DNA of 64,000 bases from Kiritimatiellia bacterium. Lineage in GTDB: Bacteria; Verrucomicrobiota; Kiritimatiellia; RFP12; UBA1067. The stretch is from the NCBI GenBank assembly GCA_017520845.1, contig JAFXEU010000052.1:23621-87620 (forward strand), in the 5' to 3' direction. The notes under the pieces were generated by a model. That model ran no database searches, was not told the DNA's origin, and saw nothing but the letters and a program-made list of their open reading frames with translations. A program made the position numbers and the translations under genes. Below, piece by piece: positions 48,071 to 64,000 of this stretch. The stretch's first letter is position 1. Each line of letters begins with the position of its first letter.

Positions 48071-49353
48071 TCTGCCGCGCCTTTCTCGTCAACCATGCCG
48101 TTTTTCTTCGCGACGATGTAAGTGCAGACGTTGTCGCCCGTAACGTTACAGCTCGTCTCGAACATGTCGAGAATCGGATTGATCCCGAGCGCGAGCGCAA
48201 CTATAAGTGAAACCTGATCCGGTTGAAGACCCATGCCTTCAAGAACCATGAATAGAAGAAAAACCGAACCTCCGGGGATACCGCCAGCGCCGACCGAGGC
48301 GAACATGATCGAAAGGCACAGCATCGAAATCTGAACGAACGTGAGATCGTATCCGAAGATATTAGCGGCGAGAATCACAAACACCGGAAGATGAACGCAG
48401 ACGCCGTCCATATTTATCGTCGCGCCCATCGGGAGCGAAAAACTCGAAAGAGAACGCGACACCCCGAGATCGTCCATCGATCTGAACGAGACGGGCAGCG
48501 TCGCGGCGGACGAGCGGGTTACGAATGCCGTCAGCATGGCGGGTCGGATTTTCCGGAACGCCTTAAGGGGATTCTCCCGGCAGAAAAGAAGAATCGCGAG
48601 CGGATAGATTACAAACATCATCGCGGCGACGCCGACGATAACGCAGAGCGCAATACGCAGATAAGGCCCGAAAAGCAGCGTCCCGTTCTGCGCGAAGTTG
48701 GCGACGGAAAGCGCAAAAACGCCGATCGGGAAATAGAGCATCACCCAGTCAATCAACTTGAACATCGCCTGCTGTGCGCCGTCAACCGCCGTTATCATGG
48801 CGCGCACAGGTGCGGCGCTCTCTCCTGCGGCGTCGATAATGGCGCGGGCTGCAAGACCGAAGGCGATCGCGAACGCGATGATCGGCAGAAACTGCCCTTC
48901 GGCGAGAGCGGCGAAAGGATTTTGAAATATCCCGACGATGAAATCGCCGAACGAGTTCGCAGCCCCGGACGAGGTTATCTCTTTGGCTCCCTCCATATAA
49001 TCGGAGGCTAGTCTTTCGGCTCCTCCCACCTTCGGATTCATAATCCAGGCGAGGGCGACGCCGAAGACCGTCGCGAAAAGCGACGTGGCGAAATACCACA
49101 GTATTACAAATCCGCCGACCCGTCCTGACTTCTTCAAAGGTATCGACGCCGCGCCGTAAATAAGCGAGAAGAGAATGATCGGATAGACGACCATCTTCAG
49201 CATCGAAACGAGAATATCTCCGAAGGGTTCTACAAAAGGCATTATGCGGGAGATGGTTCCCGCAGAACACCATTTTGAGAGCCCCAAGCCGAGAAGGGAT
49301 CCGCCGAGAAACCCCGCTAAGATTCTAAAGAGAAGCGCTTTCTTCTTATCCAT
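48067..49353 (-). CDS. dicarboxylate/amino acid:cation symporter (DAACS family)
   Basis: 428 aa. Multi-TM with re-entrant loop motifs (SSAATLP, GLQPDQVSLIVALALGINPILDM) typical of the GltP/SstT family. Confidence 0.7.
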   Translation of the reverse strand: MDKKKALLFRILAGFLGGSLLGLGLSKWCSAGTISRIMPFVEPFGDILVSMLKMVVYPIILFSLIYGAASIPLKKSGRVGGFVILWYFATSLFATVFGVALAWIMNPKVGGAERLASDYMEGAKEITSSGAANSFGDFIVGIFQNPFAALAEGQFLPIIAFAIAFGLAARAIIDAAGESAAPVRAMITAVDGAQQAMFKLIDWVMLYFPIGVFALSVANFAQNGTLLFGPYLRIALCVIVGVAAMMFVIYPLAILLFCRENPLKAFRKIRPAMLTAFVTRSSAATLPVSFRSMDDLGVSRSLSSFSLPMGATINMDGVCVHLPVFVILAANIFGYDLTFVQISMLCLSIMFASVGAGGIPGGSVFLLFMVLEGMGLQPDQVSLIVALALGINPILDMFETSCNVTGDNVCTYIVAKKNGMVDEKGAAE

Positions 49354-49356
49354 AGC

Positions 49357-50907
49357 TTAACCGAGATTCTTTAAATCAAGCGCGAGCAAAAATTCGGGAT
49401 TTGACTGCGTCTTCTTGAGCGAATTGAGTACGCTCTTCATCGCGGACTCGGAGCCGGCGGGCGAAAGTATGCGGCGCATGCCCCAAGTTTTCTCGAGTTC
49501 GACGGGATCCAGGAGGAGATCTTCCTTTCGGGTTCCCGACTTCTCAATGTCGATCGCGGGGAAGATTCGCTTGTCGGCGAGAGAACGGTCGAGCACGATT
49601 TCCATATTGCCCGTACCCTTGAATTCTTCGAAGATGACCTCGTCCATGCGAGAGCCGGTATCAACGAGCCCGGTCGCGATAATCGTAAGCGATCCTGCGC
49701 CTTCGATGTTTCGCGCCGCGCCGAAGAAGCGCTTCGGGCGATGCATCGCGAGAGCGTCGACACCGCCGGTCAGGATCTTTCCGGAATGAGGCTGAACCGT
49801 ATTGTATGCGCGGGCCATTCGCGTAATCGAGTCCATAAGGATTATCACGTCGCGCCCGTTTTCAACCTGGCGCTTCGACATCTCAAGAACCATCTCGGTG
49901 ACGTTCACGTGATGCTGCGGCTCTTCATCGAACGTCGACGAAAGGACCATCGCCTTCGTGTTGCGCTGCATATCGGTCACTTCTTCGGGACGCTCGTCGA
50001 TGAGAAGAATAATGAGCATCGCATCGGGGTGGTTCGTCGAAATGGCGTTCGCCATCTTCTGCAGAAGGACCGTCTTTCCGACACGGGGCGGTGCGATTAT
50101 AAGACCGCGCTGACCGAACCCTATCGGAGTGAACAGATCGATGACTCGCGTCGAATATTCCTTAGGATCGGTCTCGAGAATGATTCGTCTCGTGGGGAAG
50201 GTGGCCGTCAGGTTTTCAAAATGAACTACGCGGGCGGCTACCGAAGGCTCCTTCCCGTTTACGGTGTTGACGTTGCCGAGACAGAAAAAACGGTCGCGGT
50301 CGCGCGGATCGCGGATCGGCCCTTCGATGATGTCGCCCGTTCTCAAAGCATGACGGCGAATCTGCTGCTGAGTGACGAAAACATCCTCGGGGCAGGCGAG
50401 AAAGTTGTTCTTGGCGGAGCGCAGAAAACCATGGCCCTCGCGCATAATCTCCAGGCACCCGCTTGCAAGAACCGCCCCGCCCTTCGCGAGATATGAACGG
50501 ATGGCGGCAAAAATAAGTTCATGCTTTCGATACGTACCCAATTCCTCGGGATCCGCGCCGGGCATCATACAGTCGACAATCTGTTGAGCGGGCCAGATCT
50601 GAATGTCCGCAAGGCGGTATTCGGGGAGATCGGGATTACGATTTGGATTGGATGCCGTCTCCTGGGCTTGGACGCGCTGCTCCTGCGGGAGGGGTGCGTT
50701 GAGAAGAGGATTCACCGACTCTGATCCGTTCGCGCCGCGGATAGGTGAATTATTCTGTTTTTCTCTACGCTGAAACTGCGGATGATGATTTTTATGAAAT
50801 TGCTTTTTACCCCCCTGATTGGACTGGGGGGCTGGAACCGGTTTAGGAGGCTGAGACTGTTTCACCGGTTTCGCGCTCATCGCGAAAACGTCTAATTCTT
50901 CGGACAT
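49357..50907 (-). CDS. rho: transcription termination factor Rho with an ~100-aa Q/P/N-rich N-terminal extension
   Basis: Rho RNA-binding and RecA-like ATPase core (GQRGLIIAPPRVGKT, TGLVDTGSRMDEVIFEEFKGTGNMEIVLDR). The N-terminus MSEELDVF...QSQPPKPVPAPQSNQGGKKQFHKNHHPQFQRREKQ is low-complexity. Confidence 0.85.
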   Translation of the reverse strand: MSEELDVFAMSAKPVKQSQPPKPVPAPQSNQGGKKQFHKNHHPQFQRREKQNNSPIRGANGSESVNPLLNAPLPQEQRVQAQETASNPNRNPDLPEYRLADIQIWPAQQIVDCMMPGADPEELGTYRKHELIFAAIRSYLAKGGAVLASGCLEIMREGHGFLRSAKNNFLACPEDVFVTQQQIRRHALRTGDIIEGPIRDPRDRDRFFCLGNVNTVNGKEPSVAARVVHFENLTATFPTRRIILETDPKEYSTRVIDLFTPIGFGQRGLIIAPPRVGKTVLLQKMANAISTNHPDAMLIILLIDERPEEVTDMQRNTKAMVLSSTFDEEPQHHVNVTEMVLEMSKRQVENGRDVIILMDSITRMARAYNTVQPHSGKILTGGVDALAMHRPKRFFGAARNIEGAGSLTIIATGLVDTGSRMDEVIFEEFKGTGNMEIVLDRSLADKRIFPAIDIEKSGTRKEDLLLDPVELEKTWGMRRILSPAGSESAMKSVLNSLKKTQSNPEFLLALDLKNLG

Positions 50908-50922
50908 AATTTTACCTTTATT

Positions 50923-51510
50923 TTAGGCTTTGGACCTTGAAACGAGATAGTCGACCAGCTTGCGGGCTTCTGCCTTTAAGTCTTCATCGGTGGAATCGTT
51001 CAAAATCACATAATCTGATTTCGCCGCCTTTATCGCCGGATCCATCTGGGCGGCGAGTCGGGCTTCCGCTTCTTCGCGCGTATAGCCGCGCAAAGACGTC
51101 ATCCTCTCAATCTGCTTCTCGCGAGAGGAGAGGATGCAGATTATTATATCATAATCTTTCTCCCATTGCACCTCGAATAATAGCGGGATGACGGCGATTG
51201 GGGGAACGGGGAACGGGGAATGGGGACAGTCCCCTTTAACCTCCTGACTCCTAAATCCTGACTCCTGACTCCTGACCCCTTCTATCGCGGAGAGGATTTT
51301 CCGGCGGACGAGCGGGTGTATCCGCGCTTCAAGCTCCTTGCGGGCCTCGGGGTTTTTAAAAACGACTTTTCTCAGTCTCTCGCGCTCTTCTTGCGGTATG
51401 AGTTCATGAACTATGTCGTCAGCGTCGACTGTTACGACCCCTAAATCGTTCAGATAATGCGAAAGGAGGGATTTGCCAGAAGCAATCCCTCCCGTAATAC
51501 ATACTTTCAT
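50923..51510 (-). CDS. coaE: dephospho-CoA kinase carrying an in-frame heptamer-element insertion
   Basis: N-terminal P-loop MKVCITGGIASGKS. The insertion SAIEG-[VRSQESGFRSQEVKGDCPHSPFPVPPIA]-VIPLLFE is encoded by the element at 51199-51280. Confidence 0.75.
   Translation of the reverse strand: MKVCITGGIASGKSLLSHYLNDLGVVTVDADDIVHELIPQEERERLRKVVFKNPEARKELEARIHPLVRRKILSAIEGVRSQESGFRSQEVKGDCPHSPFPVPPIAVIPLLFEVQWEKDYDIIICILSSREKQIERMTSLRGYTREEAEARLAAQMDPAIKAAKSDYVILNDSTDEDLKAEARKLVDYLVSRSKA
51199..51280. repeat. second copy of the heptamer/G4 element: GGGGGAACGGGGAACGGGGAATGGGGACAGTCCCC + spacer + CTGACTCCTAAATCCTGACTCCTGACTCCTGACCCC, in frame inside coaE
   Basis: Seen directly. It has the same orientation relative to the host gene as the uvrA copy. 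Confidence 0.7.
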
Positions 51511-51521
51511 TGTATTATCAG

Positions 51522-54500
51522 TTATTCTTTCTCAGGCGCAGGCTTAATGCTTGCGGCCTCATTGCCCCCGTTATTGGCGGAAATTTTAACTTCACGACCG
51601 TGAGCATCAACAAGACGCGTGGTCAGGAAGATAAGAAGATTGCGCTTGGAGGAATATTCCGAATGGCTACGGAAGAGACGACCGATAAAAGGAATGTCTC
51701 CAAGGAAGGGAACCTTGTCGTCCATCGCCTTACGCTGCTCGGTGATGAGACCGCCCATGACGATCGTAGCGCCAGGATATACAAGAACCTTCGAATCGAT
51801 TTCACGGATATGGAAGAAGGGCTGCTCCATCGGGGCATCGTAATACGTCATATTAGCGGAGCCCTGATTGCCGAGAGAATCAAGCGCGGCACCGGCCGAG
51901 TCGAGAGCCTTGATGGCGAATGCCTCTTTGACCTCGTCGCTCAGATTGGCTCCGAGCTGCGTGAAGATACTGATGACGCCTGTAAAGATTTCGCCGACGC
52001 CCTGGAAACTCTCGAGCGAACTGGAATTGCCCGTGAACGGAATACGCATACCGTAGTTCTTCCAGGTGGGCTCGTCGATGACCTTGGTGTTGAGCTGGAG
52101 ATCGATCAGGTTGCCGTTGTCGGTAAGCCTGGGCGTTACATCGAGAATGACGCCGACTTCCTGCTCCTTGAAGTTGGTAGGCTCAACGATAGCGAGAATC
52201 GCGCTCTGGCTGCCGCCGCCGTAATCCGATCCGCCGCTTCTCGAGCTCTGAAGCTGGACGTCGTACTCATCCGGGTAACGGTACATCGTAACAACCTTGA
52301 TAACGGCCTGCTCTTCCGAGCGAGTCAGAACTTTCGGAGCGGAGAGGAGGTCCGTGTCGCTACGCTGCGAAAGCATGTGAAGAATCATAGAAAGATCAGC
52401 CGATCCGAGGAAGGCGTTAACACGCATAAACTGATCGTTCGTCGAATAACCCTCGCCGGAAATATGGTTGCCGAGCGTTGAAAGGTAACGGTTGTTCATG
52501 CCGTAGCCGGAATCTCCGCCCGTGGCGCCAAAGCCAACGCTACCCTTCGCGCCAGTACCGCGAATCCACGGAGCACCCCTGGATGCGGCATACGATGTAA
52601 GGCTGTTGTTTACAGTCGTAGACGGAGTTACAATCTGATCCGTGGGGGTCTGATTGCCGATTGTGGGAATGCTCGGTGTTCCGCTAGTGGAAGGACCGGT
52701 AGCGGGGGTGTTACCGGCAACAGACTGATTGGCCGAGCCAAGATCCCACTGACCGTTCTTTATGCCGAGAAGTTTAGAGGCATGGCGACCGAGACCGAGC
52801 GAATAGTCGCTGTTGAGAATCCACTCGAATCCGAGGGAGTTAAGATCGTCCTGGCAGACTTCAACGAATCGGGCCTCGATTTCAATGAGCGTAGGCTTGA
52901 TGTTCAGTTCGTTGAGAGCGTTTTCAAGTTCAGCAAGATTCTCGAGCGTGTTCTTAACCTGAAGTTTGCCGAGAGTCTTAATATACATAATGGAAGAACC
53001 TTCGGGCCACTCGACACCCATAAGGCGGAAGAACTCCTTCCAGTCCTGCTCCTTGTTCTCGCCGTCGTCGTTGCTGGCTTTAGGTCTGGTGCTGAGGTTG
53101 AAACCGGTGTTTCCGCTGGCGCGAAGATCCTGAACGTCGGTCTGAGCCGTGTCCATACGATCCATGAACGAAGAAAGAACGGGGAAGCTGCGAGTATGCA
53201 TCTCTTCAACGGAAGCGTCCTTGTGCATAATCGTGACCATCGGTCCCTTTACGGTAAACTTGTAGTTTACGGCCTCGCAAACGAGCTTAAGCGCATCATA
53301 GAAGGAAATTCCGCTTGCGGTGATGATCGGCAAGACCGGTCCGCGCTCGCTGGAAGGCTTGGCTTCGGCGGTTTCGCTTACACCGAAACCGCTGCCGTTG
53401 TCGGCGCCGGCCTCGGCGTCCGCGGGAGCCTGCGCAATCTCCTGAGGCTTGAAGAAGAAGTTGAAACCACGCTGCTCGAGCGGAATATCAGGACGGTCGA
53501 AATCCTTGGAGAGCTGGCTGAACGTTTCAATCGCATCGCTGAGCGTAGCCGGAGGCTTGAACGAAATCGCGGGAAGGCGCATATCCTTCATACGCTTGAT
53601 GATTTCCTGCTCGGGGGAAGCCGTCTCATCCTTCTCGTCGGTCGGCTTTTTATTCGTATCGGCGACGACTTCGACGTCGCGAACGTCGATCGCATAGTTG
53701 GGCCTCCACGCTTTATCTACTTCGGCCATCATACCCTTGCGCGTAACCTCGCGCTCGCTGGCCATAATCGTTCTGCGCTTCTGATGGATTTTATCAAGAA
53801 GCCTCAACGCCTCCTGATTATAGGGGTCGTCATGGAGTACAAGCTCAACCTCGTCGCGCGCCTTATCAAGTTCTCTTACTGAAAGGTAGTGCTGAGCGCG
53901 TTTAAGGTGCTTTTTGTACTCGGCACGCTTTGCCTTAAAATCCTCGTCGTTACGGCGATGGGTGATTTCAGATACATCGGCCTTGTTGGCGTCGGGATCG
54001 CCTTCGGCAATCCAAGCCTCATGCTGACGGCGCGCCTTGGGGTGGCGGCAGTCGATAGCCTTCTGGATCAGCTTGAGGGCGCGCTCGCGGCGACCGGTCG
54101 CATTTTCCTGAAGAGCTGCTCTGTAAAGACCCTCGGCGATACCTTCCTGACACTTCTTCCTGAGACCGGAAAGCGAAGGAGAGGAATTCAGAAGCTTCAT
54201 CGCCAACGCATAATGACGGGCGGCTTCCTGGAACTCCTCGCCGGCCATGCACTTCTCGGCCTCGGCGATTTCGCGTTCAGCCTGAAGCTTGAACGCCTTG
54301 AAGCGCAACTCCTGAGTCTTACGCAGAGCATCGCGCAATTCCGCGTCCGTAGCCTTCTTGTTGTCGCCGTAATATTTCTCGGCGGGCTTTAGCTGACCGT
54401 CGTCAGCTGCGACCTTGGCGGGCTCTTCGTCCTTAGTCTCGGCGTCGGCCGCAGCCGCTTCGGGAGCAGGCGCCGCATCCTTAGCTTCAACGACAGGCTC

Positions 54501-54773
54501 AGCCGTCGCCGTTTGGGCGGGAGCCGGAGCAGGATCATCCGACAAAATGTCTGCAGAAGCATTCTCGGCAGGCGCCGGCGCCGGTGTCGCAACGGCCGGT
54601 TCCGCCGGCTTCGCAGGCTCTTCGGCTTTCTTCTCGACCGCGGTGTCACTACCGGCGAGATCGTTCAGCAAATCGTCAAGATCGTCTTGGGCAGACGCTT
54701 TGTATCCCGCGGCTACAAAAGCCGCAGTCGCTGCGAGTACCGTTAAATTCTTGAAAGTCGTCATTTTAAGCAT
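51522..54773 (-). CDS. secretin (GspD/PilQ family) with long N-terminal Ala/Pro-rich and TPR-like region, 1083 aa
   Basis: Signal peptide present. A/P/E-rich low-complexity region and TPR-like helices. The C-terminal secretin domain ends with VPFLGDIPFIGRLFRSHSEYSSKRNLLIFLTTRLV. Confidence 0.75.
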   Translation of the reverse strand: MLKMTTFKNLTVLAATAAFVAAGYKASAQDDLDDLLNDLAGSDTAVEKKAEEPAKPAEPAVATPAPAPAENASADILSDDPAPAPAQTATAEPVVEAKDAAPAPEAAAADAETKDEEPAKVAADDGQLKPAEKYYGDNKKATDAELRDALRKTQELRFKAFKLQAEREIAEAEKCMAGEEFQEAARHYALAMKLLNSSPSLSGLRKKCQEGIAEGLYRAALQENATGRRERALKLIQKAIDCRHPKARRQHEAWIAEGDPDANKADVSEITHRRNDEDFKAKRAEYKKHLKRAQHYLSVRELDKARDEVELVLHDDPYNQEALRLLDKIHQKRRTIMASEREVTRKGMMAEVDKAWRPNYAIDVRDVEVVADTNKKPTDEKDETASPEQEIIKRMKDMRLPAISFKPPATLSDAIETFSQLSKDFDRPDIPLEQRGFNFFFKPQEIAQAPADAEAGADNGSGFGVSETAEAKPSSERGPVLPIITASGISFYDALKLVCEAVNYKFTVKGPMVTIMHKDASVEEMHTRSFPVLSSFMDRMDTAQTDVQDLRASGNTGFNLSTRPKASNDDGENKEQDWKEFFRLMGVEWPEGSSIMYIKTLGKLQVKNTLENLAELENALNELNIKPTLIEIEARFVEVCQDDLNSLGFEWILNSDYSLGLGRHASKLLGIKNGQWDLGSANQSVAGNTPATGPSTSGTPSIPTIGNQTPTDQIVTPSTTVNNSLTSYAASRGAPWIRGTGAKGSVGFGATGGDSGYGMNNRYLSTLGNHISGEGYSTNDQFMRVNAFLGSADLSMILHMLSQRSDTDLLSAPKVLTRSEEQAVIKVVTMYRYPDEYDVQLQSSRSGGSDYGGGSQSAILAIVEPTNFKEQEVGVILDVTPRLTDNGNLIDLQLNTKVIDEPTWKNYGMRIPFTGNSSSLESFQGVGEIFTGVISIFTQLGANLSDEVKEAFAIKALDSAGAALDSLGNQGSANMTYYDAPMEQPFFHIREIDSKVLVYPGATIVMGGLITEQRKAMDDKVPFLGDIPFIGRLFRSHSEYSSKRNLLIFLTTRLVDAHGREVKISANNGGNEAASIKPAPEKE

Positions 54774-54823
54774 AACACTCCTTGAGATTATCGTATATAT
54801 TATAGACTTTTTTGGTTAACTAT

Positions 54824-55942
54824 TCAAGGGCTTTCGATAACCCGCACTTTATTCGATTTTACGTTCCTGATCTTCACCGCTTCACGATCGCGTCCGTTCC
54901 CCTTGCTCAATATCTTTTCAACAACAAATTCCTCGTCTCTGATTTTAAACTTTTGTCCTTCGACCACCTTTATATCCGTAACGCCGGCACGGCTACAGGA
55001 CAATGTCGCCTGAACGTCCGTAGGAGTCTTTTTAACCTCCTTGACAAAAGTGATTATCTTTCCGTCACTTAGGCGTTTAAGCGAAATTTCCGAAACATCC
55101 TTTTTCATGGGCGTACCCCATGACGTCTTAATCTCTTGCGTCTTGGGCTTATACTCAACGACGACAAAACCGGCCCTATAGTGAGCGTTGGGACTCTGCT
55201 TTGTGTTTTGCAAAGTATTGGCGATTTCTTCGCCCTTAAGCGCCCATAAAGTACCTCTGTCGATTTCATTGCGGCGCTCCGGCAGCCTGAACTGATATCT
55301 GTAATCGCCCTGATAAGGCATCGCACCGACAAATTCCAAAGTTGAAAATTCCTGCTTCAGCGCTCCGGCCAATTCAACATAATCGATGTAATCGGGATGT
55401 GACAACGCGTCCGCAGGATTGGTTTTCGCCGTAAACTCCTCCATATTGGTGAAGCCGTCCCCGTCCTTGTCGGCGCTCGCGTCGTCGTTCGCGACGTCGA
55501 GTCCGTATGTCCTCTCGTACTCGTCCAAAAGCCCGTCTCCGTCCGTATCGAGAACGACCTTGATGTCCTTAGTCTGCTTTACTTTACAGTAGGGACAGTT
55601 TTCAAGTTTTGACGGTATCAGGCGTCCGCACCCCGCGATCTGAGAGTCCGGCGAAATACACGCCTTGCGGCCTTCGGGCGCGAGAAAACTCCCCGCGTCG
55701 TCCGAAATCCCTTTCATCGACACCGGGTCGGAAACGGATTCAAGAAGCTCGACCACGCCGTCCTTACCATCACCGCCGGATTTCCCGGCGCGCGCGGAGG
55801 AGGAAGAACCCTCGGAAACCGTCTCGGACGACAGAACGAATTTGAACACCGCTACAAGCGCCAAAACGGCAATGCCGCCGAGAGCCGCGAGTTTATCCCA
55901 ATTCGACTTGAAAAAATCACCGTCACTTTTTCGAACGCTCAT
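54824..55942 (-). CDS. membrane-anchored periplasmic protein with CxxC...CxxC knot and thrombospondin-type-3-like Ca-binding repeats (DTDGDGLLD, DKDGDGFTN); pilus-assembly accessory candidate
   Basis: N-terminal TM helix. Positioned between the Amuc_1100-like gene and the secretin. Confidence 0.45.
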   Translation of the reverse strand: MSVRKSDGDFFKSNWDKLAALGGIAVLALVAVFKFVLSSETVSEGSSSSARAGKSGGDGKDGVVELLESVSDPVSMKGISDDAGSFLAPEGRKACISPDSQIAGCGRLIPSKLENCPYCKVKQTKDIKVVLDTDGDGLLDEYERTYGLDVANDDASADKDGDGFTNMEEFTAKTNPADALSHPDYIDYVELAGALKQEFSTLEFVGAMPYQGDYRYQFRLPERRNEIDRGTLWALKGEEIANTLQNTKQSPNAHYRAGFVVVEYKPKTQEIKTSWGTPMKKDVSEISLKRLSDGKIITFVKEVKKTPTDVQATLSCSRAGVTDIKVVEGQKFKIRDEEFVVEKILSKGNGRDREAVKIRNVKSNKVRVIESP

Positions 55943-56868
55943 TTCGACTCCTTACCCTTCTCGATCTTCTGTGTGAATATCACCGAGGTTATATTCATTT
56001 TAACCTTAAGAGGCGCCTCAGCGGCGGGATCCACCACTATAGCCTTAATCGCCTGCTCTCCCGCGGCGCTTTTTTTACCCATATCCTTCTTAACATCGAT
56101 CTTCTGAAGAAAGCTCTCGCCGTCGATAAACAGTGATTCAACGACGAAAAACCACTTGCCTTCGCCGCTTGCGAGCATATTCATAAACTTTACGAGAGCC
56201 GCCGGCTTGGCCTCAAACTCAACGGCGTATGTCTGTTCGTCGTATTTCGGGGCCTCCTCGGTCTTTTCAGCCGGTTTCCTCCTGGACCTGTTTCTTGCCG
56301 GCTTCTTAATCTCCGGCTCGCTCTGAGCCTTGACGACATCCGTAAACATTCCGAGCTGACAGACTCCGGCGTCGCGCATCAGTTCCATAATATGATAGAA
56401 ATCGCTCCATTGGCGCGCTACCAGAAGTTTGTTCTTCGGAGCGACGGCGCCGTCGTCTTTAACGTAATTGTAGAAAACCTTGAAATTCTGGTCGCCGTTT
56501 TTTGCGAGGAAATCGCCTGGAATGATTTTTACGGTCGAATCCGAAGGCCAGCTCTTAATCTCCCTGAATTCCGTGTTGATCGCCTGTTGAAGCTCGTTTT
56601 CGGATTTCTCGGCATGTCTTACCAGATTGGTGTTTACCATCGAATCATATCGCTCCGACATCAGTCCGTCAATCTCTTTGATATCTTCTGCGATCGTTTT
56701 ATCGCGGCTGACGCCGTTAAGGGCGCTGCACTTATTCTGAAGATCGGCAACTTCCTGTTTACGCTGGTCGATCGTTGACCCGTTCATGAAAACGAGAGCG
56801 AAAAAGACGAGAGCCACAGCCGCTCCGACACCGCCTGTCACCGCCATCGTAAGTTGATTTTTATTCAT
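55939..56868 (-). CDS. single-pass membrane coiled-coil protein, PilO-like; candidate homolog of Akkermansia Amuc_1100 pili-like protein
   Basis: N-terminal TM (LTMAVTGGVGAAVALVFFALVF) followed by a coiled-coil. The C-terminal block VEFEAKPAALVKFMNMLASGEGKWFFVVESLFI aligns by eye with the Amuc_1100 region LEIAFQGDRESVLKAMNAITGMQDYLFTVNSIRI. That comparison is from memory and is not verified. Confidence 0.4.
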   Translation of the reverse strand: MNKNQLTMAVTGGVGAAVALVFFALVFMNGSTIDQRKQEVADLQNKCSALNGVSRDKTIAEDIKEIDGLMSERYDSMVNTNLVRHAEKSENELQQAINTEFREIKSWPSDSTVKIIPGDFLAKNGDQNFKVFYNYVKDDGAVAPKNKLLVARQWSDFYHIMELMRDAGVCQLGMFTDVVKAQSEPEIKKPARNRSRRKPAEKTEEAPKYDEQTYAVEFEAKPAALVKFMNMLASGEGKWFFVVESLFIDGESFLQKIDVKKDMGKKSAAGEQAIKAIVVDPAAEAPLKVKMNITSVIFTQKIEKGKESK

Positions 56869-58583
56869 TTCGACTCCGGCTCCTTCCCGTTGAGCTTCCA
56901 TTCAAAAACATACGCCTTCAAGCAGGTGTCGCTGCTCACATTCGGCTCGGCGATGGTATTTGTTTTTTTGCGTATGACGTCAATACCCTTCTTTTTGAAT
57001 GCGGCGATTATACCGTCGACATCCGCATCGGAAGACCCCCATTTATACAAGGTAAAATGCACTCCCGGCACTTCAACCGGCTCGTTGGTCCTGCTTCTCG
57101 CCCTCCTGTCCCTTCTGCTTCTGGGCTTTCTGTCCTTCGGTTCTTCTTTCGGTTCAGCGTCCTTTATTTTAACTTCTTCCCACTTGCCGATCCACATTCC
57201 CTTCGACTCGACCACGCCGCGCACGTCGTTCACCTTCTTGAGATAATCGTCGTGCCGGGTAATCTGTTTGAGAAACTCCTTGGCCTCGACAACCTTCGCC
57301 TCGTACTTTTTATTCTGGGCGTCGTTGTAGGCCTTGTTGCCTTCCAAAACTCTGAGTCTGGGCTCGTATTCGCTCTTCTTGGCGTCAAGCCGGCTCAACT
57401 CGCCGGACTGGACGAAATACCAAAGCGCGCCTGCCGCGGCAAGAGCGACGGCACCTATCGTCACGAACGGAATCCGCGCCGCCTCCCTGCGGGCCTCCGT
57501 GATCGACGGCGGCAGAAGATTGATGGAGATCGGCGAGGATCCGCCGGCGTGAAGCGCCAGACCCGTGGTCGCCGCGAGGTACACGCTGTCGCGCTCGATA
57601 TCGGAAGTGTCGCACGACGATCCTACCCCTGCAACATCGAACGGGTTAAGAAACGCGACCTCGATCTGAAGGGAATCCTGGAAGAAATCCGCGATCTGGG
57701 GAAGAAGCGCACAGCCGCCTGTCAGATAAAGCCTGGTCGGCATCGCCCCGCCCTGCTGACTGCGGTAGAAGTTGACTGAACGCGTGATTTCCGCATGCAG
57801 GCGCGTCATCACCGAACGGCATATCTTCGAGACGTGATCGAGCGTTTCATCCTCGTCTTCGGTCACGCCGCCCATAGACACGTATGCGTTCCGGCACTTG
57901 TAATTCTCGGCGTCTTCCTGGCTGCAGCCCAAAGTCTGGGCGATTTCCTTGGTGATCGTGTTGCCCGCGACGGGAATGGCGCGGTTGTAGATTTTCTCGC
58001 CTTCGACGATAGAAAGCGAAGTCGTCTTCGCGCCGATATCGAGAAGAATCGCGCAGCCGCCGTCGTAGGCGGGACTTGCGCGGAGAAGATTGATGATCGA
58101 GATGGGCGCGACATCGATGATTTCAGGATCGAAGCCGGCGGACTTTACGGCCTCGACGATCTTCTCGATCTGATCGACCTTCGTCGCGACGACGATAACG
58201 GACTTGTCGCCGTTGGGCATATCTCCCAATATCTGGCTGTCGCAGACCATTTCGTCGATCGGGAACGGGATGTTCTGCTCGATCTCGTACCTGATGAGAG
58301 TCTCGAATCTTTCTTTCCCGCCCGCCATCGGTATGGCGGCGTTGCGCAGAAACGCCATCTGTCCTGAAATGCTGAGCGCGACCTTACCGGGTCTGATGCC
58401 GTTGGCGCGCATGATTTCATGAAGCGCTGGCGCGAGAATCGTGGAGGCGTTGCCCGAATCGAGCGCGGCGGCGAGCTGCGACTTGCCGTACTTCAGCAGA
58501 GTCGGGGCGCGGCCGCCGATATCATACTCCGCGAGAACGACGGTCGACGCGCCTATATTAAGAGTCAAAAGCTTCTTTCCCAT
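56865..58583 (-). CDS. PilM-like actin-fold ATPase fused to a PilN-like TM/coiled-coil C-terminal region (572 aa)
   Basis: N-terminal MGKKLLTLNIGASTVVLAEY and LLDIGAKTTSLSIV (PilM/FtsA-like), then a TM helix IPFVTIGAVALAAAGALWYF and a coiled coil. Confidence 0.7.
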   Translation of the reverse strand: MGKKLLTLNIGASTVVLAEYDIGGRAPTLLKYGKSQLAAALDSGNASTILAPALHEIMRANGIRPGKVALSISGQMAFLRNAAIPMAGGKERFETLIRYEIEQNIPFPIDEMVCDSQILGDMPNGDKSVIVVATKVDQIEKIVEAVKSAGFDPEIIDVAPISIINLLRASPAYDGGCAILLDIGAKTTSLSIVEGEKIYNRAIPVAGNTITKEIAQTLGCSQEDAENYKCRNAYVSMGGVTEDEDETLDHVSKICRSVMTRLHAEITRSVNFYRSQQGGAMPTRLYLTGGCALLPQIADFFQDSLQIEVAFLNPFDVAGVGSSCDTSDIERDSVYLAATTGLALHAGGSSPISINLLPPSITEARREAARIPFVTIGAVALAAAGALWYFVQSGELSRLDAKKSEYEPRLRVLEGNKAYNDAQNKKYEAKVVEAKEFLKQITRHDDYLKKVNDVRGVVESKGMWIGKWEEVKIKDAEPKEEPKDRKPRSRRDRRARSRTNEPVEVPGVHFTLYKWGSSDADVDGIIAAFKKKGIDVIRKKTNTIAEPNVSSDTCLKAYVFEWKLNGKEPESK

Positions 58584-58607
58584 AACCTGAAATGTTTAGT
58601 ATTGTGA

Positions 58608-59363
58608 TTATTGAGCGACGTCTTCGTAATCGTTAGGGTTGACAAGAGCCCAAATGGTCTTGGAACGGTCGACGAGACCCTGTCGGCGCTCGATCATCGG
58701 TTCGCCGTTCTTGTTCTTCGCGTCCATGACCTGGGCCTCGTTCCACCACATCGTATGGCTCTTTATTCCGGAAATCTCGCTCTCGCTGTCGCCCGCGAGA
58801 ACCTCTCCTTCCGGACTGGAGATGACAAGTCCGACCGCCTTGGGCTCGCCGTACCTTTCAAGATACGAAGGCGGAAGACAGACGCCCGCCGCATGGGAAC
58901 CGCGCGGAATATTGACATAGCTGACCGTCGTCGAGAAATATGAATACGGAGGGATCGAAGCGCGCTCTTTCCTGTCGCCCTCCGTGGCCGTCGAGGTTTC
59001 AAGGAGGACATGCCAGGTGAATACGAGCCTGTCGGTCCACTGATCGTACGTCTCGTACTTGGATTCGAGAACGATCCAGCGGCGGTCCTTCATATAGCAC
59101 TTGCCGATGATCGAACCTCCGGGAATCGCGGGGGCGGCGAGAGTCGAGGCACGGCCCGCCTTGGGAAGACGGTCCAGTCTGACGCGCGGAACCTTCGCCG
59201 ACGCCGCGGCGGGACCCGTCTGGCCGACCTGCATGCCGCCGGCGCGCGTGCCGGTACGGACGTTGCGGCTGTTCCTCCTCGGGCTCTGCGCCTCGGCGGT
59301 CGTCGCCGCGAAGACTGCGGCGATAACCGCAACGGAAAAGATGAGAAGCTTTTTCATGTTCAT
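58608..59363 (-). CDS. secreted hypothetical protein (251 aa), first gene of the pili-like cluster (position corresponds to Amuc_1102)
   Basis: Signal peptide MNMKKLLIFSVAVIAAVFAATTAEA. No recognised motifs. Confidence 0.4.
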   Translation of the reverse strand: MNMKKLLIFSVAVIAAVFAATTAEAQSPRRNSRNVRTGTRAGGMQVGQTGPAAASAKVPRVRLDRLPKAGRASTLAAPAIPGGSIIGKCYMKDRRWIVLESKYETYDQWTDRLVFTWHVLLETSTATEGDRKERASIPPYSYFSTTVSYVNIPRGSHAAGVCLPPSYLERYGEPKAVGLVISSPEGEVLAGDSESEISGIKSHTMWWNEAQVMDAKNKNGEPMIERRQGLVDRSKTIWALVNPNDYEDVAQ

Positions 59364-59376
59364 TCCTCCTGTCGTT

Positions 59377-60366
59377 TTAAAGTACTTTCATTTTTGGAAG
59401 ATCCTGGATGTCGACGACGCCTACGACATGACCCGACGGATCGCATACGGGAAGATCGTCGATACGACGCTTCTCGAACACCTTGAGAAGTTCCGCGGCA
59501 TAGACGTCGTCTCTTACGAACATCGGCGAAGGGGTCATGACGGCGGAAACCTCGCCCGCGAGCATCTTGGCCGCGTCGCCGCCCTCGCTCATGCGGCGCC
59601 TGAAATCGCCGTCCGTAAAAATTCCGAGCAGTTTCCCGCAATCGTCGACGATGACGGCCGAACCGCTTTTCGCGCGGGTCATCGCCATTAGCGTATCCAT
59701 CACGCTCGACGTCGGCGAAACGCGCGCGAGCCGGTCGCCCGTACGCATAATGTCGGTAACCTTCATCACGAGCGCGCGGCCGATGGCGCCCGCCGGATGA
59801 TTCATCGCGTATTCCTCGATCGCGAACTTCTGCGCGTCTATCAGGACCATCGCGAGCGCATCGCCCATCGCCATCGTTGCGGTCGTGGAGTTCGTCGGCG
59901 CCATCCCGAAGGGGCAGGCCTCGCGGCCGCACGGGATTTCGAGATGTATATCGCTCATCCGCGCGAGCGACGAATCGGTCTTGCCGGTCATCGAAACGAC
60001 CTTGAGCCCGTGACGGCGGATAGCGGGAATGAGTTTCAGAAGTTCGTCGGACTCTCCGCTGAACGAAAGCGCGATCAGAATATCCTTCGCGGCGACCATT
60101 CCGAGATCGCCGTGCATGGCCTGGACGGGATTGAGAACGATCGATCTTATACCCGTCGAAGCGAATATCGCGCTCATCTTCTCGGCGATATGAAGATTCT
60201 TGCCGACGCCCGAAACGACAACGATCCCGCCCGCGGCGGATGTCGCAAGTATCATCTTGACGGTATCGGTAAAGCTCTCGCCAAGTGAATCGCGCGTGCG
60301 CTTAAGCCCTTCGATTTCCACATCGAAGACCTCTGCCGCTCTTGTTATCATTTCGGTTTCAGTCAT
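59377..60366 (-). CDS. kdsD: arabinose-5-phosphate isomerase (SIS + tandem CBS)
   Basis: SIS domain (VVVSGVGKNLHIAEK...LSFSGESDE) plus two CBS domains. 329 aa, typical KdsD/KpsF. Confidence 0.8.
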   Translation of the reverse strand: MTETEMITRAAEVFDVEIEGLKRTRDSLGESFTDTVKMILATSAAGGIVVVSGVGKNLHIAEKMSAIFASTGIRSIVLNPVQAMHGDLGMVAAKDILIALSFSGESDELLKLIPAIRRHGLKVVSMTGKTDSSLARMSDIHLEIPCGREACPFGMAPTNSTTATMAMGDALAMVLIDAQKFAIEEYAMNHPAGAIGRALVMKVTDIMRTGDRLARVSPTSSVMDTLMAMTRAKSGSAVIVDDCGKLLGIFTDGDFRRRMSEGGDAAKMLAGEVSAVMTPSPMFVRDDVYAAELLKVFEKRRIDDLPVCDPSGHVVGVVDIQDLPKMKVL

Positions 60367-60422
60367 ATTCTCTTTTCTATCACCGCATTATGCTAAAAGT
60401 TTAACAAATCGCCGTCTTTTAC

Positions 60423-61469
60423 TCAAGACTGTTTTTTGCTCTGGCTCTGCAGAAGCGTTACGGCGATCGTCCCGATGATATCCTCGGCGGAGCATCCGCG
60501 GGAGAGATCGTTCATCGCCTTGGCGAGACCCTGAAGGTTCGGACCGATCGCTTCCGCGCCGCCGAGACGCTGGGCGATCTTGTAGCCGATATTGCCGGAC
60601 TGGAGATCCGGGAAGATAAAGACGTTGGCGTTGCCGTGGATCTGACCGTTGGGATTCTTGAGCTGGCCGACCGAGGGTACGATGGCCGCGTCGAACTGCA
60701 TCTCGCCGTCCATCTTGATGCCGGCGGCCTCGAACTTGGGCGCGGCGATTTCAACGGCCTTCTGAACCTTCTCGACGAGAGGACCGCCGGCGGACCCTTT
60801 TGTGGAGAACGAAAGAAACGCGACGCGCGGTTCGTTACCGGTAAGATCGCGATACGTTCTCGCCGTCGCGATGGCGATGTCGGCGAGCTGCTCGCTCGTC
60901 GGATCGGGGATGACCGCGCAATCGCCGAACGCCAAAACGCTGTCGCCGGCGGGCGTAGGCTCCTTAAGATCCATGATGAAGCACGAGCTCGCGGTCTTGA
61001 CGCCCTTCTCTGTTCCGAGCGTATGGAACGCCGCGCGGAGCATATCGCCCGTTGAAGCGATGGAACCTGCGACGAGACCGTCGGCAAGACCGAGCTTAAC
61101 CATCATGCCGCCGAAGTAGATACGCTTTGTGCGGAGAGTCTTCTGCGCCGACTCGAGATCGATGAGCCTCTGCTTCTCGGCAGGCTTTTTGGACTCCTTG
61201 GCGTTCCACGCCTCTAGGAATTCCTGCTCAAGCTTGATATCGCCCTGGGTATAGTCAATAACCTTGATGCCGCGCGCGGCCATGGAAAGACCGACCGACG
61301 CTTCGGCGAGAGCGACCTCGTCCTTCGTTCCGAGAACTATAGGCTTGCAGATCTTACGGTCAACGCATGCGCACGCGGCGGTAACGACACGCGCGTCCAT
61401 ACCTTCGGGAAGAACGATCGTGCCGTTCAGCTTCGAAGCGTTTTCGATAATCTGGTTGATTGCGTTCAT
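60423..61469 (-). CDS. pta: phosphate acetyltransferase (short PTA-domain form)
   Basis: PTA_PTB family. 348 aa. SIASTGDMLRA and GGAEAIGPNLQG motifs. Confidence 0.85.
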   Translation of the reverse strand: MNAINQIIENASKLNGTIVLPEGMDARVVTAACACVDRKICKPIVLGTKDEVALAEASVGLSMAARGIKVIDYTQGDIKLEQEFLEAWNAKESKKPAEKQRLIDLESAQKTLRTKRIYFGGMMVKLGLADGLVAGSIASTGDMLRAAFHTLGTEKGVKTASSCFIMDLKEPTPAGDSVLAFGDCAVIPDPTSEQLADIAIATARTYRDLTGNEPRVAFLSFSTKGSAGGPLVEKVQKAVEIAAPKFEAAGIKMDGEMQFDAAIVPSVGQLKNPNGQIHGNANVFIFPDLQSGNIGYKIAQRLGGAEAIGPNLQGLAKAMNDLSRGCSAEDIIGTIAVTLLQSQSKKQS

Positions 61470-61497
61470 TTTATTCAGTTTAGAATTTTAAAGTTCA

Positions 61498-61538
61498 GAG
61501 TTACTAACGACTAACCACTAATCACTAACGACTAATCA
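61498..61538. repeat. heptamer tandem array ACTAACG-ACTAACC-ACTAATC-ACTAACG-ACTAATC-ACT directly abutting the ackA stop codon, in the ackA-pta intergenic spacer
   Basis: Seen directly. On the mRNA strand it reads (GRUUAGU)n, which puts UAG/UGA stop codons in all three frames. Confidence 0.6.
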
Positions 61539-62666
61539 CTCCCCAAGCACACGGACGGTGTCGCGGGCGATCATAAGCTCCTCGTTAGTCGGGATGATGA
61601 CGACGGGAATCTTAGACGCCTTCGTGGAGATAACCGCAACCTTGCCGCGCGTCTTGTTGGCCTTCTTGTCAAGCTTGATGCCGAGAGCGCCGAGACGGTT
61701 AATGATACGCTCGCGGACCTCGGAAGAATTCTCGCCGATACCGCCCGTCATGATGATCGCGTCGGCGCCGCCGATCACCGTATTGTACGCGCCGATGTAA
61801 AGCGCCATGCGGTAGGCGAGCATTTCAAGCGCGAGCTCGGCCATCTTGTCGCCCTTCTCGGCCTTGGAAACGATGTCGCGGCAGTCGCTCGAACCGGTAA
61901 GCGCGAGAAGGCCGGACTTCTTGTTGAGAATCGTATCCATCTCGGCGGGAGTTTTCTTCTCGGCCTCCATGATTGAGAGAACGGCGGCGGTATCGATATC
62001 TCCGCAGCGCGTACCCATGATGAGACCGGCGAGCGGCGTAAGACCCATCGTCGTATCGACGCACTGACCGTTCTTGACGGCGGCGAAAGACGAGCCGTTA
62101 CCCATGTGGCACGTGACGACGTTAAGTTTCGCGAGGGGCTTCTTCAAAAACTTCGCTGCCTCCTGGACGATGAACTTGTGGCTCGTACCGTGGAAACCGT
62201 ACTTGCGGATACCCATCTTCTTGTAGTACTTCGGATCAATCGCGTACATCGCCGCGCAGTCGGGCATCGTCTGATGGAACGCGGTGTCGAACACGGCGAC
62301 GTTGGGAACGCCCTTGAAGATTTTCTCGCACGCTTCGATGCCTCCGAGATTCGGCGGCATGTGAAGAGGCCCGAACTTGACGAGCTTCTTGCACTCGGCC
62401 ATAACCTTCTTGGTAACCTTTACGGAATCCTTGAAGACCTCGGCGCCGTGAAGGACGCGATGTCCGATAGCGTCGATATCCTTGGGGTTGCCGAGCTCCG
62501 CGACCACCTGCTTGAGAGCCTCGGTGTGATCCTTCGGTCCCCCGCATCCGATGCGCTCGACGAGACCCTTGGCGAGACGCTCGCCCTTCTTCATGCTGAA
62601 GAGCTGATATTTAAGAGAGCTTGAACCGGAGTTGATTACGAGAACTTTATCGATAGCTTTTTTCAT
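61536..62666 (-). CDS. ackA: acetate kinase
   Basis: N-terminal VLVINSGSSSLKYQLF acetate/propionate kinase signature. 376 aa. Lies in an operon with pta. Confidence 0.85.
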   Translation of the reverse strand: MKKAIDKVLVINSGSSSLKYQLFSMKKGERLAKGLVERIGCGGPKDHTEALKQVVAELGNPKDIDAIGHRVLHGAEVFKDSVKVTKKVMAECKKLVKFGPLHMPPNLGGIEACEKIFKGVPNVAVFDTAFHQTMPDCAAMYAIDPKYYKKMGIRKYGFHGTSHKFIVQEAAKFLKKPLAKLNVVTCHMGNGSSFAAVKNGQCVDTTMGLTPLAGLIMGTRCGDIDTAAVLSIMEAEKKTPAEMDTILNKKSGLLALTGSSDCRDIVSKAEKGDKMAELALEMLAYRMALYIGAYNTVIGGADAIIMTGGIGENSSEVRERIINRLGALGIKLDKKANKTRGKVAVISTKASKIPVVIIPTNEELMIARDTVRVLGE

Positions 62667-62685
62667 GATTTGATAATGTTAATTT

Positions 62686-62711
62686 GCCCGCCGCTTTTTT
62701 TCGCGGCGGGC
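62686..62711. terminator. GC-rich stem-loop GCCCGCCGC-tttttttc-GCGGCGGGC between the partial upstream gene and ackA (possible terminator/attenuator)
   Basis: Perfect 9-bp GC stem. The T-run sits in the loop rather than 3' of the stem on the coding (minus) strand, so terminator function is uncertain. Confidence 0.3.
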
Positions 62712-62721
62712 TGATTTATAT

Positions 62722-64000
62722 TTATTCTGTTACGACAACCTTGAAGAATCCGCTCTTCTCAGCGCCGAGTCCGTCGATATTGATCGTCTGAGCATTGCCG
62801 CCGACGACAATCGTCTCAGTGGCCTTGACGGTCCAATCAGCGTCGGAGAGTGAAGCCTTCCAGAGAACCTGACACGTTACGGTCTTTTTGGTTTCGCCCT
62901 CAAGCGTGATGAATCCGAGGCCGTTCGTGTTGCCTTCGGCGGTATTGAGCTCTCCGTCGATTTCAACGACGACATTGCCGTTCGCGTCGAAAGATACGGA
63001 CTTGATCTCGACCGACTCGACCTTGGACTCGACCTGGATCGAACCGTTGGCTCCGACGGTAACGTCATCGGGATTGTAGCCGAGCGCAAGAGCCGTCATG
63101 GCGGGAGATGCGAACGCCGTCATGATGTAGTTGTTGTAGGCGTCGACTCGCGTTCCGCTTACAACCTTATCCTGAAGGTTATCCGCAAGCGCCTTGTTGA
63201 TGCCGAACGTCTTAAGAAGGTTCCCGTCAAGATCCTTTGTGCCGGAATTGAGATTACCGTACTTCACATACTCCCACGCGTCGGGGAGGCTGTTACCGTT
63301 CGTGTCGACATCCTCGATGTAAATGTCGACGGGCTTCTCGAAACCGTTCTTGTCGGTAAGTTCAAACGCCGTCGGATTGAACGCTCCGGCGCCGGGCTTG
63401 CCGCGACCGCAGGCGTATCCCCAAGACTCGAACGAATCGCGCTGACGCTTTACTGCATCCGCCTTGTTCAAGTCGGCATACGCTCTTAAGAAGTACCTGC
63501 CCGTCGCAAGACCGGTCAACACGGCATTCGTAGGATGCTGAACGTTCTGAGCGGTTACGGACGCGACATCGGAGACGACGGCGCGGGCCGCGGGAATTCC
63601 CGTGAAGTCCGGTGTCGTGAACGCTTCGACGACGAAGGTCGACGCGCCCGCGACGTTCGAGGGACCGAAGTACTTGACGGCCACGGGGATACTCGAATAT
63701 CCTGCGCCGTTTTCGGGTGCGCTCAGCTTAAACGAAAGTTCATTCGACCAGAGATCTGTCTTGAACTTGGCGTTGTACATCGAGACTCTCCATGTGTATG
63801 ACTCGAAGTTCTTGAGCTGATCGCCGATGTAGGCGTCGGCCTCGAACGAATAAACGTCGTCCGCGTCACGGGCGGGAACAGGAAGCGGCTGACCGTTGTT
63901 CGATTCCCAGACAACGCTGCCGCCGCTGCGAACCTGAATCTTGAATGCGGTATAACCGTTGTGACCGCCGGGCATCTTCCACTTGAAGACAGGGCTCGTC
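62722..64000 (-). CDS. secreted beta-rich hypothetical protein, C-terminal part (gene start beyond window end)
   Basis: The long minus-strand ORF runs to the window edge. Composition is Ig/fibronectin-like beta-sandwich. The track ORF 62722-63975 is probably incomplete at its N-terminus. Confidence 0.4.
   Translation of the reverse strand, partial: TSPVFKWKMPGGHNGYTAFKIQVRSGGSVVWESNNGQPLPVPARDADDVYSFEADAYIGDQLKNFESYTWRVSMYNAKFKTDLWSNELSFKLSAPENGAGYSSIPVAVKYFGPSNVAGASTFVVEAFTTPDFTGIPAARAVVSDVASVTAQNVQHPTNAVLTGLATGRYFLRAYADLNKADAVKRQRDSFESWGYACGRGKPGAGAFNPTAFELTDKNGFEKPVDIYIEDVDTNGNSLPDAWEYVKYGNLNSGTKDLDGNLLKTFGINKALADNLQDKVVSGTRVDAYNNYIMTAFASPAMTALALGYNPDDVTVGANGSIQVESKVESVEIKSVSFDANGNVVVEIDGELNTAEGNTNGLGFITLEGETKKTVTCQVLWKASLSDADWTVKATETIVVGGNAQTINIDGLGAEKSGFFKVVVTE

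Follow-up and report, generated by a model that had tools for sequence, protein, structure and literature searches.

A pilus-like locus in Kiritimatiellia, the probable counterpart of Amuc_1102-1098 of Akkermansia muciniphila

The five-gene cluster and its distribution

A 64-kb stretch of contig JAFXEU010000052.1 (64,000 nucleotides, hereafter the window), assembled from a ruminant-gut Kiritimatiellia bacterium outside the Verrucomicrobiales, carries five co-directional open reading frames (ORFs) on the minus strand (51522-59363) that resemble the Amuc_1102-1098 pilus-like locus of Akkermansia muciniphila and are referred to here by the names of their Akkermansia partners (Table 1). Packing is operon-like, with intergenic gaps along the cluster of 24, 0, -4, and 50 nucleotides. 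The gene content, sizes, and features set out in the original prediction were confirmed from the ORF map, hydropathy, and Pfam searches, with the third product being 309 amino acids (aa) plus a stop codon; the mechanically called ORF for this gene reaches 56901, and the ATG at 56868, the start found in all homologues, was taken.

The Amuc_1102-like protein consists of a signal-peptide-like hydrophobic segment (residues 1-26), a basic low-complexity linker, an immunoglobulin (Ig)-like beta-sandwich core (residues ~60-225), and a highly conserved C-terminal tail. The Amuc_1101-like protein begins with an actin-like PilM domain (residues 1-345), followed by the motif INLLP (residues 354-358), a membrane segment that is the only hydrophobic segment in the hydropathy profile (residues 368-392), a coiled coil, and a C-terminal periplasmic domain. 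In the Amuc_1100-like protein, an N-terminal membrane anchor (residues 5-34, by simple hydropathy) precedes a long helix or coiled coil and a ferredoxin-like alpha/beta core. The Amuc_1099-like protein likewise has an N-terminal membrane anchor (residues 15-43, by hydropathy), four cysteines (C95, C105, C116, and C119), and two thrombospondin type 3 (TSP3) repeats of the form DxDxDG (residues 132-137 and 158-163; Pfam TSP3_bac, E = 1.2e-8). The secretin is the largest product, arranged as a signal peptide, an Ala/Pro/Asp/Glu-rich region (residues 31-150), a helical TPR-like region (residues ~150-400), N-domains, a Gly/Ser/Thr-rich insert (residues 681-800), and a C-terminal secretin domain (Pfam Secretin, E = 3.7e-32).

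The second product matched Pfam PilM_2 (E = 5e-38) and the TIGR01175 pilM model (164.6 bits, above the cut-off of 133). Canonical PilN binds PilM via a highly conserved N-terminal motif, within a described PilM-PilN, PilO, and PilP architecture (PMC5805733). Because INLLP stands directly after the PilM domain and canonical PilN binds PilM through such a motif, the natural reading of this protein would be a covalent PilM-PilN fusion, and the invariance of INLLP in 11 relatives, followed by the membrane segment, supports the original prediction on this point. A literature search for the literal string INLLP returned no paper.

Relatives of the query proteins were encoded in 462 stretches among species-representative genomes, from which 80 loci were kept, nearly all from gut or rumen Kiritimatiellia. 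The nearest genome match was a Kiritimatiellae metagenome-assembled genome (MAG) from yak rectum, with a PilM fusion 97% identical to that of the window. Wherever the contig was long enough, the order AckA-Pta-KpsF, the five genes, and CoaE-Rho was kept, with the CoaE-Rho flank seen in 40-45 of the 80 loci. A chance arrangement of ORFs was rejected, as all 80 fetched Kiritimatiellia loci, wherever the contig sufficed, carry these five genes in an unchanged order. With tblastn, the Amuc_1100-like gene went undetected in 32 loci, of which 31 have an ORF of 315-362 aa in its slot, carrying the same N-terminal signature (MNKxK...GGV). This gene is the fastest-evolving of the cluster. Median identity to the Kiritimatiellia counterparts was 58% for the Amuc_1102-like protein, 57% for the PilM fusion, 54% for the secretin, 36% for the Amuc_1099-like protein, and 28% for the Amuc_1100-like protein, so that rates are strongly unequal within one operon; the flanking Rho reached 87%.

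Several further features were recorded around the cluster. Tail residues ~224-251 of the Amuc_1102-like protein (58608-58700, minus strand; IERRQGLxDRSKTIWALVNPNDYExVAQ) are almost invariant across 32 relatives, and residues 230-244 have a predicted local distance difference test score (pLDDT) below 50 in the AlphaFold2 (AF2) model; the tail may serve as an interaction peptide, becoming ordered only once a partner is bound. A scan of 49000-64000 for promoters and terminators found sites no commoner than in shuffled sequence. One sigma-70-like promoter match (10 of 12 positions) lies in the 50-nucleotide gap just upstream of the secretin gene, and a perfect GC-rich palindromic hairpin with a T-rich loop, terminator-like on both strands, lies between a 417-aa ORF and ackA. 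That ORF and two others in the window had no Pfam match at E <= 0.001.

Table 1. Positions in the window of the cluster genes, the downstream flank, and other features mentioned in the text
Feature	Position	Strand	Length	Basis or description
Amuc_1102-like secreted protein	58608-59363	-	251 aa	NF042424, hhalign
Amuc_1101-like PilM-PilN fusion (putative)	56865-58583	-	572 aa	PilM_2, NF045709, TIGR01175, BLASTP
Amuc_1100-like protein, predicted PilO fold	55939-56868	-	309 aa plus stop	NF038287, profile, Foldseek
Amuc_1099-like bitopic protein	54824-55942	-	372 aa	NF042425, TSP3_bac
Amuc_1098-like secretin	51522-54773	-	1083 aa	Pfam Secretin, NF042912, BLASTP
Dephospho-CoA kinase CoaE (downstream flank)	50923-51510	-		BLASTP to the Akkermansia ORF after the secretin, E = 2e-18
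Rho (downstream flank)	49357-50907	-		BLASTP to the next Akkermansia ORF, E = 7e-116
Glycan/amino-sugar gene block	1308-23283	-
Sigma-70-like promoter match	54799-54827	-
Palindromic hairpin	62686-62711			9 G-C pairs
ORF without Pfam match	62722-63975	-	417 aa
ORF without Pfam match	44328-46046	-	572 aa
ORF without Pfam match	12694-13842	-	382 aa

Correspondence with the Akkermansia locus

For each of the five proteins, the best NCBIfam match was the model of the corresponding Akkermansia protein: Amuc_1102 (NF042424; E = 2e-4, 21 bits, cut-off 55), Amuc_1101 (NF045709; E = 3e-109, 366 bits, cut-off 650), Amuc_1100 (NF038287; E = 5.8e-7, 29 bits, cut-off 180), Amuc_1099 (NF042425; E = 9e-19, 68 bits, passing the cut-off of 50), and Amuc_1098 (NF042912; E = 2e-112, 377 bits, cut-off 750). 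The Akkermansia proteins, used as positive controls, passed their own models. Using an A. muciniphila locus (L081; Amuc_1100 100% identical) as a BLASTP database of 11 proteins, all five window proteins best-matched their positional partner (Amuc_1101, 31% identity, E = 6e-54; Amuc_1098, 25% identity over 946 columns, E = 8e-64; Amuc_1099, E = 8e-7; Amuc_1102, E = 0.011; Amuc_1100, E = 0.064), and CoaE and Rho also paired, in order. Together these form a seven-gene synteny common to the window and Akkermansia. The Akkermansia genes Amuc_1099-1102 have been named mucin utilisation locus 2 (MUL2; MUL2A, Amuc_1102; MUL2B, Amuc_1101), and CoaE and Rho have been reported as neighbours of MUL2 loci in the Akkermansiaceae in a 2026 paper (PMC13174399). 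The correspondence with Amuc_1102-1098 that had been proposed from gene order and size is therefore borne out by the NCBIfam top matches, the positional BLASTP pairing, and the synteny to CoaE and Rho.

The two loci are alike in the order and orientation of the five genes and in their predicted membrane features: the Amuc_1102-like protein and the secretin each begin with a signal peptide, the Amuc_1100-like and Amuc_1099-like proteins are anchored at the N-terminus, and the membrane segment of the PilM fusion is internal. Protein sizes, in gene order, are 251/572/309/372/1083 aa here and 238/612/317/337/907 aa in Akkermansia. The loci differ in that sequence identity is only ~23-31%, in the upstream neighbours, which here are KpsF-Pta-AckA, and in additions to two of the Kiritimatiellia proteins. 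The four cysteines and both TSP3 repeats of the Amuc_1099-like protein are conserved in at least 80% of the aligned Kiritimatiellia orthologues (alignment of ~40), while in the same alignment Amuc_1099 has the second repeat only and lacks the first repeat and the cysteines. The original prediction had regarded a TSP3 protein as an unusual partner for a secretin; this does not hold, since Amuc_1099 itself carries one conserved TSP3 repeat, and only the four-cysteine motif and the extra repeat are clade-specific in this protein. As the alignment of the secretin with Amuc_1098 starts at residue 152, the TPR-like region appears to be common to both proteins, and the Ala/Pro-rich first ~150 residues are an N-terminal extension of the Kiritimatiellia secretin. 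Of the Ala/Pro-rich plus TPR N-terminus originally described, the Ala/Pro-rich part stands (28% Ala and 12% Pro in residues 31-150), while the TPR label had sub-threshold Pfam support only (TPR_14, E = 0.051; Fis1_TPR_C, E = 0.045; scan at E up to 10).

The original prediction had made its reading depend on similarity of the third product to Amuc_1100 and of the first to Amuc_1102, and both were found. A search of 1.84 billion representatives yielded 152 representatives of the 309-aa family, nearly all 300-370 aa long and aligned end-to-end, and a 141-sequence profile matched Amuc_1100 in the PDB (6LAD/6KNY, against which the reference sequence was checked) over its full length (E = 6.9e-11), with an hhalign probability of 96.3% for the family against Amuc_1100. 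Using an AF2 model of the 309-aa protein (pLDDT 84), the ten highest-ranked Foldseek matches in the PDB were all Amuc_1100 chains (6KNY, 6LAD, and 6LAF; E = 3e-7 to 8e-6). The first matches outside this family were PilO of P. aeruginosa (2RJZ) and chain O of the Myxococcus pilus machine (3JC8_O), at E = 0.017-0.019 and a probability of 0.94-0.98. The 309-aa protein is a homologue of Amuc_1100, and NCBI already names Kiritimatiellae proteins "Amuc_1100 family pilus-like protein". From the modeled structure it also appears to have the topology and fold of PilO; the Pfam scan gave no PilO match, so that the likeness to PilO is at the level of fold only.

The link to Amuc_1102 is weaker but consistent. 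NF042424 (Amuc_1102_rel) was the sole NCBIfam match of the 251-aa protein and was matched by 15 of 32 family members (best E = 2.2e-8), with no competing families. The family comprises 960 homologues, most at 55% identity or above, and hhalign against authentic Amuc_1102 (taken from the A. muciniphila comparison locus and verified as PDB 7DSZ) gave a probability of 89% (E = 2.2e-6). The AF2 model had high pLDDT over the beta-rich core. The 251-aa protein is probably a remote homologue of Amuc_1102.

A number of results weigh against this interpretation of the cluster. Four of the five proteins scored well under the curated NCBIfam equivalog cut-offs, with only Amuc_1099_fam passed, and are therefore to be taken as homologues in a divergent sister clade and not as equivalogs. 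Among searches of the PDB, phmmer with the single 320-aa ORF of the Amuc_1100-like gene and a shallow six-sequence profile of its family did not find Amuc_1100, phmmer with the single 251-aa sequence found no Amuc structure, a profile built from 32 sequences of the 251-aa family gave no match, Foldseek with the 251-aa model returned only generic Ig-like/beta-sandwich matches (7DSZ not in the top 50), and a profile of the C-terminal domain of the Amuc_1099-like protein found no meaningful relative, neither PilP nor GspC. The C-terminal profile of the PilM fusion aligns in register with Myxococcus PilN from INLLP onward, which favors the fusion, but weakly and at a value that is non-significant alone (E = 0.32). 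The Pfam PilN, PilO, and PilP models matched nothing in the cluster, including in a sub-region scan at E up to 10 that covered the C-terminus of the PilM fusion, both halves of the TSP3 protein, and the N-terminus of the secretin. Published work locates Amuc_1100 in the outer membrane, a position that sits uneasily with a PilO-like role at the inner membrane. Finally, the glycan-degradation genes of the window lie >25 kb from the cluster and may be unrelated to it, such that this link is circumstantial.

Taken to the extreme, the resemblance to Akkermansia could be coincidental, with homology limited to PilM and the secretin and the three small genes being unrelated fillers, as the weak pairwise BLASTP values of the Amuc_1100 and Amuc_1102 counterparts in an 11-protein database and the empty single-sequence PDB searches might suggest. 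Such a coincidence is extremely improbable, and is effectively refuted by the full-length match of the deep profile to Amuc_1100, the ten best fold matches, the hhalign result for Amuc_1102, the Amuc_1099 family cut-off passed with no competing family matches, and the positional BLASTP pairing within a synteny of seven genes. The region can, with good confidence, be considered the Kiritimatiellia counterpart of the A. muciniphila Amuc_1102-1098 pilus-like locus, a pilMNOPQ-type envelope module with an extra secreted protein and, by analogy with Akkermansia, a predicted role in glycan capture, adhesion, or uptake.

Comparison with type IV pilus and type II secretion systems

A six-frame scan of the window returned no PilB/PilT-type Walker A box, PilT signature, or prepilin N-terminal motif, and Pfam scans of the other window ORFs returned no pilus genes, consistent with the earlier observation that no pilin or PilB/PilT ATPase is encoded there. 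The conclusion that had been drawn from it, a minimal and atypical apparatus lacking pilins and ATPase, was rejected. Canonical pilMNOPQ operons stand apart from pilin, peptidase, and ATPase genes, as in Pseudomonas, and because of this separation the absence of such genes is not evidence of a minimal machine, which cannot be inferred from 64 kb. Among 160 fetched loci (2.4 Mb), one had genes of this type nearby: in the MAG UBA3761 (Kiritimatiellia/Verrucomicrobia; locus L079, 17664-20500, plus strand), a PilB-type ATPase (554 aa, 609 bits) and a PilT-type ATPase (375 aa, 433 bits, above its cut-off) directly follow the secretin, replacing CoaE-Rho. This locus weakly ties the module to type IV pilus ATPases.

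The PilB and PilT genes adjoining that secretin also favor a rival reading, that the cluster is an ordinary type IVa pilMNOPQ operon for retractile pili (adhesion, twitching, DNA uptake) with no special link to glycans, in which case the Amuc names would be a taxon-specific label for a divergent PilMNOPQ. In comparison to the PilMNOPQ systems of Pseudomonas aeruginosa, Myxococcus xanthus, and Thermus thermophilus, the canonical gene order M-(N)-O-(P)-Q is present, with one additional gene at the front, and the cluster shares an actin-like PilM that passes the TIGR01175 cut-off, the PilN feature INLLP followed by a membrane segment and coiled coil, a PilO-like third product, and a clear C-terminal secretin domain. 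The window also encodes ComM and RecA, though these are common housekeeping genes. Unlike in those systems, PilM and PilN would here be one polypeptide, and the secretin has a TPR-like, Ala/Pro-rich N-terminus and no AMIN domains detected by Pfam. Against an ordinary operon, the cluster is headed by a very conserved gene for an Ig-like secreted protein that canonical pilMNOPQ lacks, and the secretin scored 111 bits on the TIGR02515 PilQ model (cut-off 284). The fourth protein carries a membrane anchor and not a lipoprotein signal, with four cysteines, TSP3 repeats, and no Pfam match to PilP or GspC; it stands in the PilP/GspC position of the operon and, on these sequence features, is not a PilP lipoprotein. 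Homologous genes in Akkermansia have, in addition, been reported as required for mucin use. An ordinary pilus operon is possible but, on balance, unlikely.

The window encodes many secreted glycoside hydrolases, and a type II secretion-like system for their export is another possible reading; the cluster would then be its outer part, with the fusion as GspL, the PilO-fold protein as GspM, the TSP3 protein as GspC, and the secretin as GspD. GspL is in effect a PilM-PilN fusion (a PilM-like domain, a membrane segment, and a periplasmic ferredoxin-like domain), GspM is PilO-like, and GspC is membrane-anchored, as is the TSP3 protein. The secretin scored similarly on the two secretin models, slightly higher on GspD (131 bits) than on PilQ, but both scores are far under their cut-offs (GspD, 351). 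There were no GspL, GspM, or GspC family matches, gene order follows the type IVa pilus pattern and not gspC-M, no GspE, GspF, GspG, or other pseudopilin genes were found in the window, and INLLP is a feature of PilN. A type II secretion-like system is doubtful, and considerably more so than an ordinary pilus operon.

Proposed architecture, function, and significance

As a counterpart of Amuc_1102-1098, the module may be arranged with a cytoplasmic actin-like PilM domain fused through INLLP to a PilN-like membrane, coiled-coil, and periplasmic part, with which the Amuc_1100-like PilO-fold protein, anchored in the inner membrane, would pair. The putative calcium-binding Amuc_1099-like protein, at the place of PilP or GspC, would bridge this inner-membrane platform to the secretin, and the secretin would form the outer-membrane channel. 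The Ig-like Amuc_1102-like protein could act either as an accessory or as a subunit that is exported or associated with a fibre, and a motor ATPase, a platform protein, and pilins would be expected elsewhere in the genome.

Based on analogy with the transposon genetics of A. muciniphila, the most likely role of such a module would be the capture of, adhesion to, or uptake of complex glycans. In Akkermansia, pili-like MUL genes have been linked to colonisation of the gut and to the uptake of mucin into intracellular compartments, and the five products are abundant envelope proteins (PMC5332112). The window itself carries a dense block of glycan and amino-sugar genes (Table 1) that includes a ROK kinase, a NagB-like isomerase, a sodium:solute symporter, a 1392-aa fusion of glycoside hydrolase (GH) families GH2 and GH20, two DUF4838 proteins, a GH20 hexosaminidase, and a GH39-like protein, a content that fits the predicted degradation of host or complex glycans.

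A more speculative variant, judged clearly unlikely though less so than a type II secretion system, is that Amuc_1102-1098-type modules are not conventional pili at all and represent an ancient machine for polysaccharide capture or import in Verrucomicrobiia and Kiritimatiellia. In such a machine, the Ig-like Amuc_1102-type protein would be the exported working part instead of a classical prepilin, and coupling would fall to the calcium-binding Amuc_1099-type protein in place of PilP. If true, the divergence of the Amuc_1100-type proteins and the conservation of the Amuc_1102-type proteins across Kiritimatiellia would reflect different selective pressures.

On the preferred reading, that of a Kiritimatiellia counterpart of the Akkermansia locus, the cluster is no new system and extends a known kind of system to another bacterial class, with small clade-specific additions. 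Its practical value is modest, as NCBI annotation already assigns such Kiritimatiellae proteins to the Amuc_1100 family. Amuc_1100 and the proteins encoded around it come from a candidate next-generation probiotic and rank among its most studied. Fold and operon logic would place Amuc_1100-type proteins at the PilO position of a pilMNOPQ-like module, a point relevant to the dispute in which Amuc_1100 is seen either as a pilus or outer-membrane protein or as a part of the envelope machinery. The locus has been described as conserved mainly within the Verrucomicrobiales, in a discussion covering only the Verrucomicrobiales, Chthoniobacterales, and Methylacidiphilales (PMC13174399). The literature search returned no paper joining Kiritimatiell* with Amuc_1100, and none of the literature searched reports that Kiritimatiellia conserve the locus in full. 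As the whole locus and its CoaE-Rho flank are kept in ruminant and human gut Kiritimatiellia, its distribution suggests that the locus predates the split between the classes and is not an invention specific to Akkermansia or to mucin.

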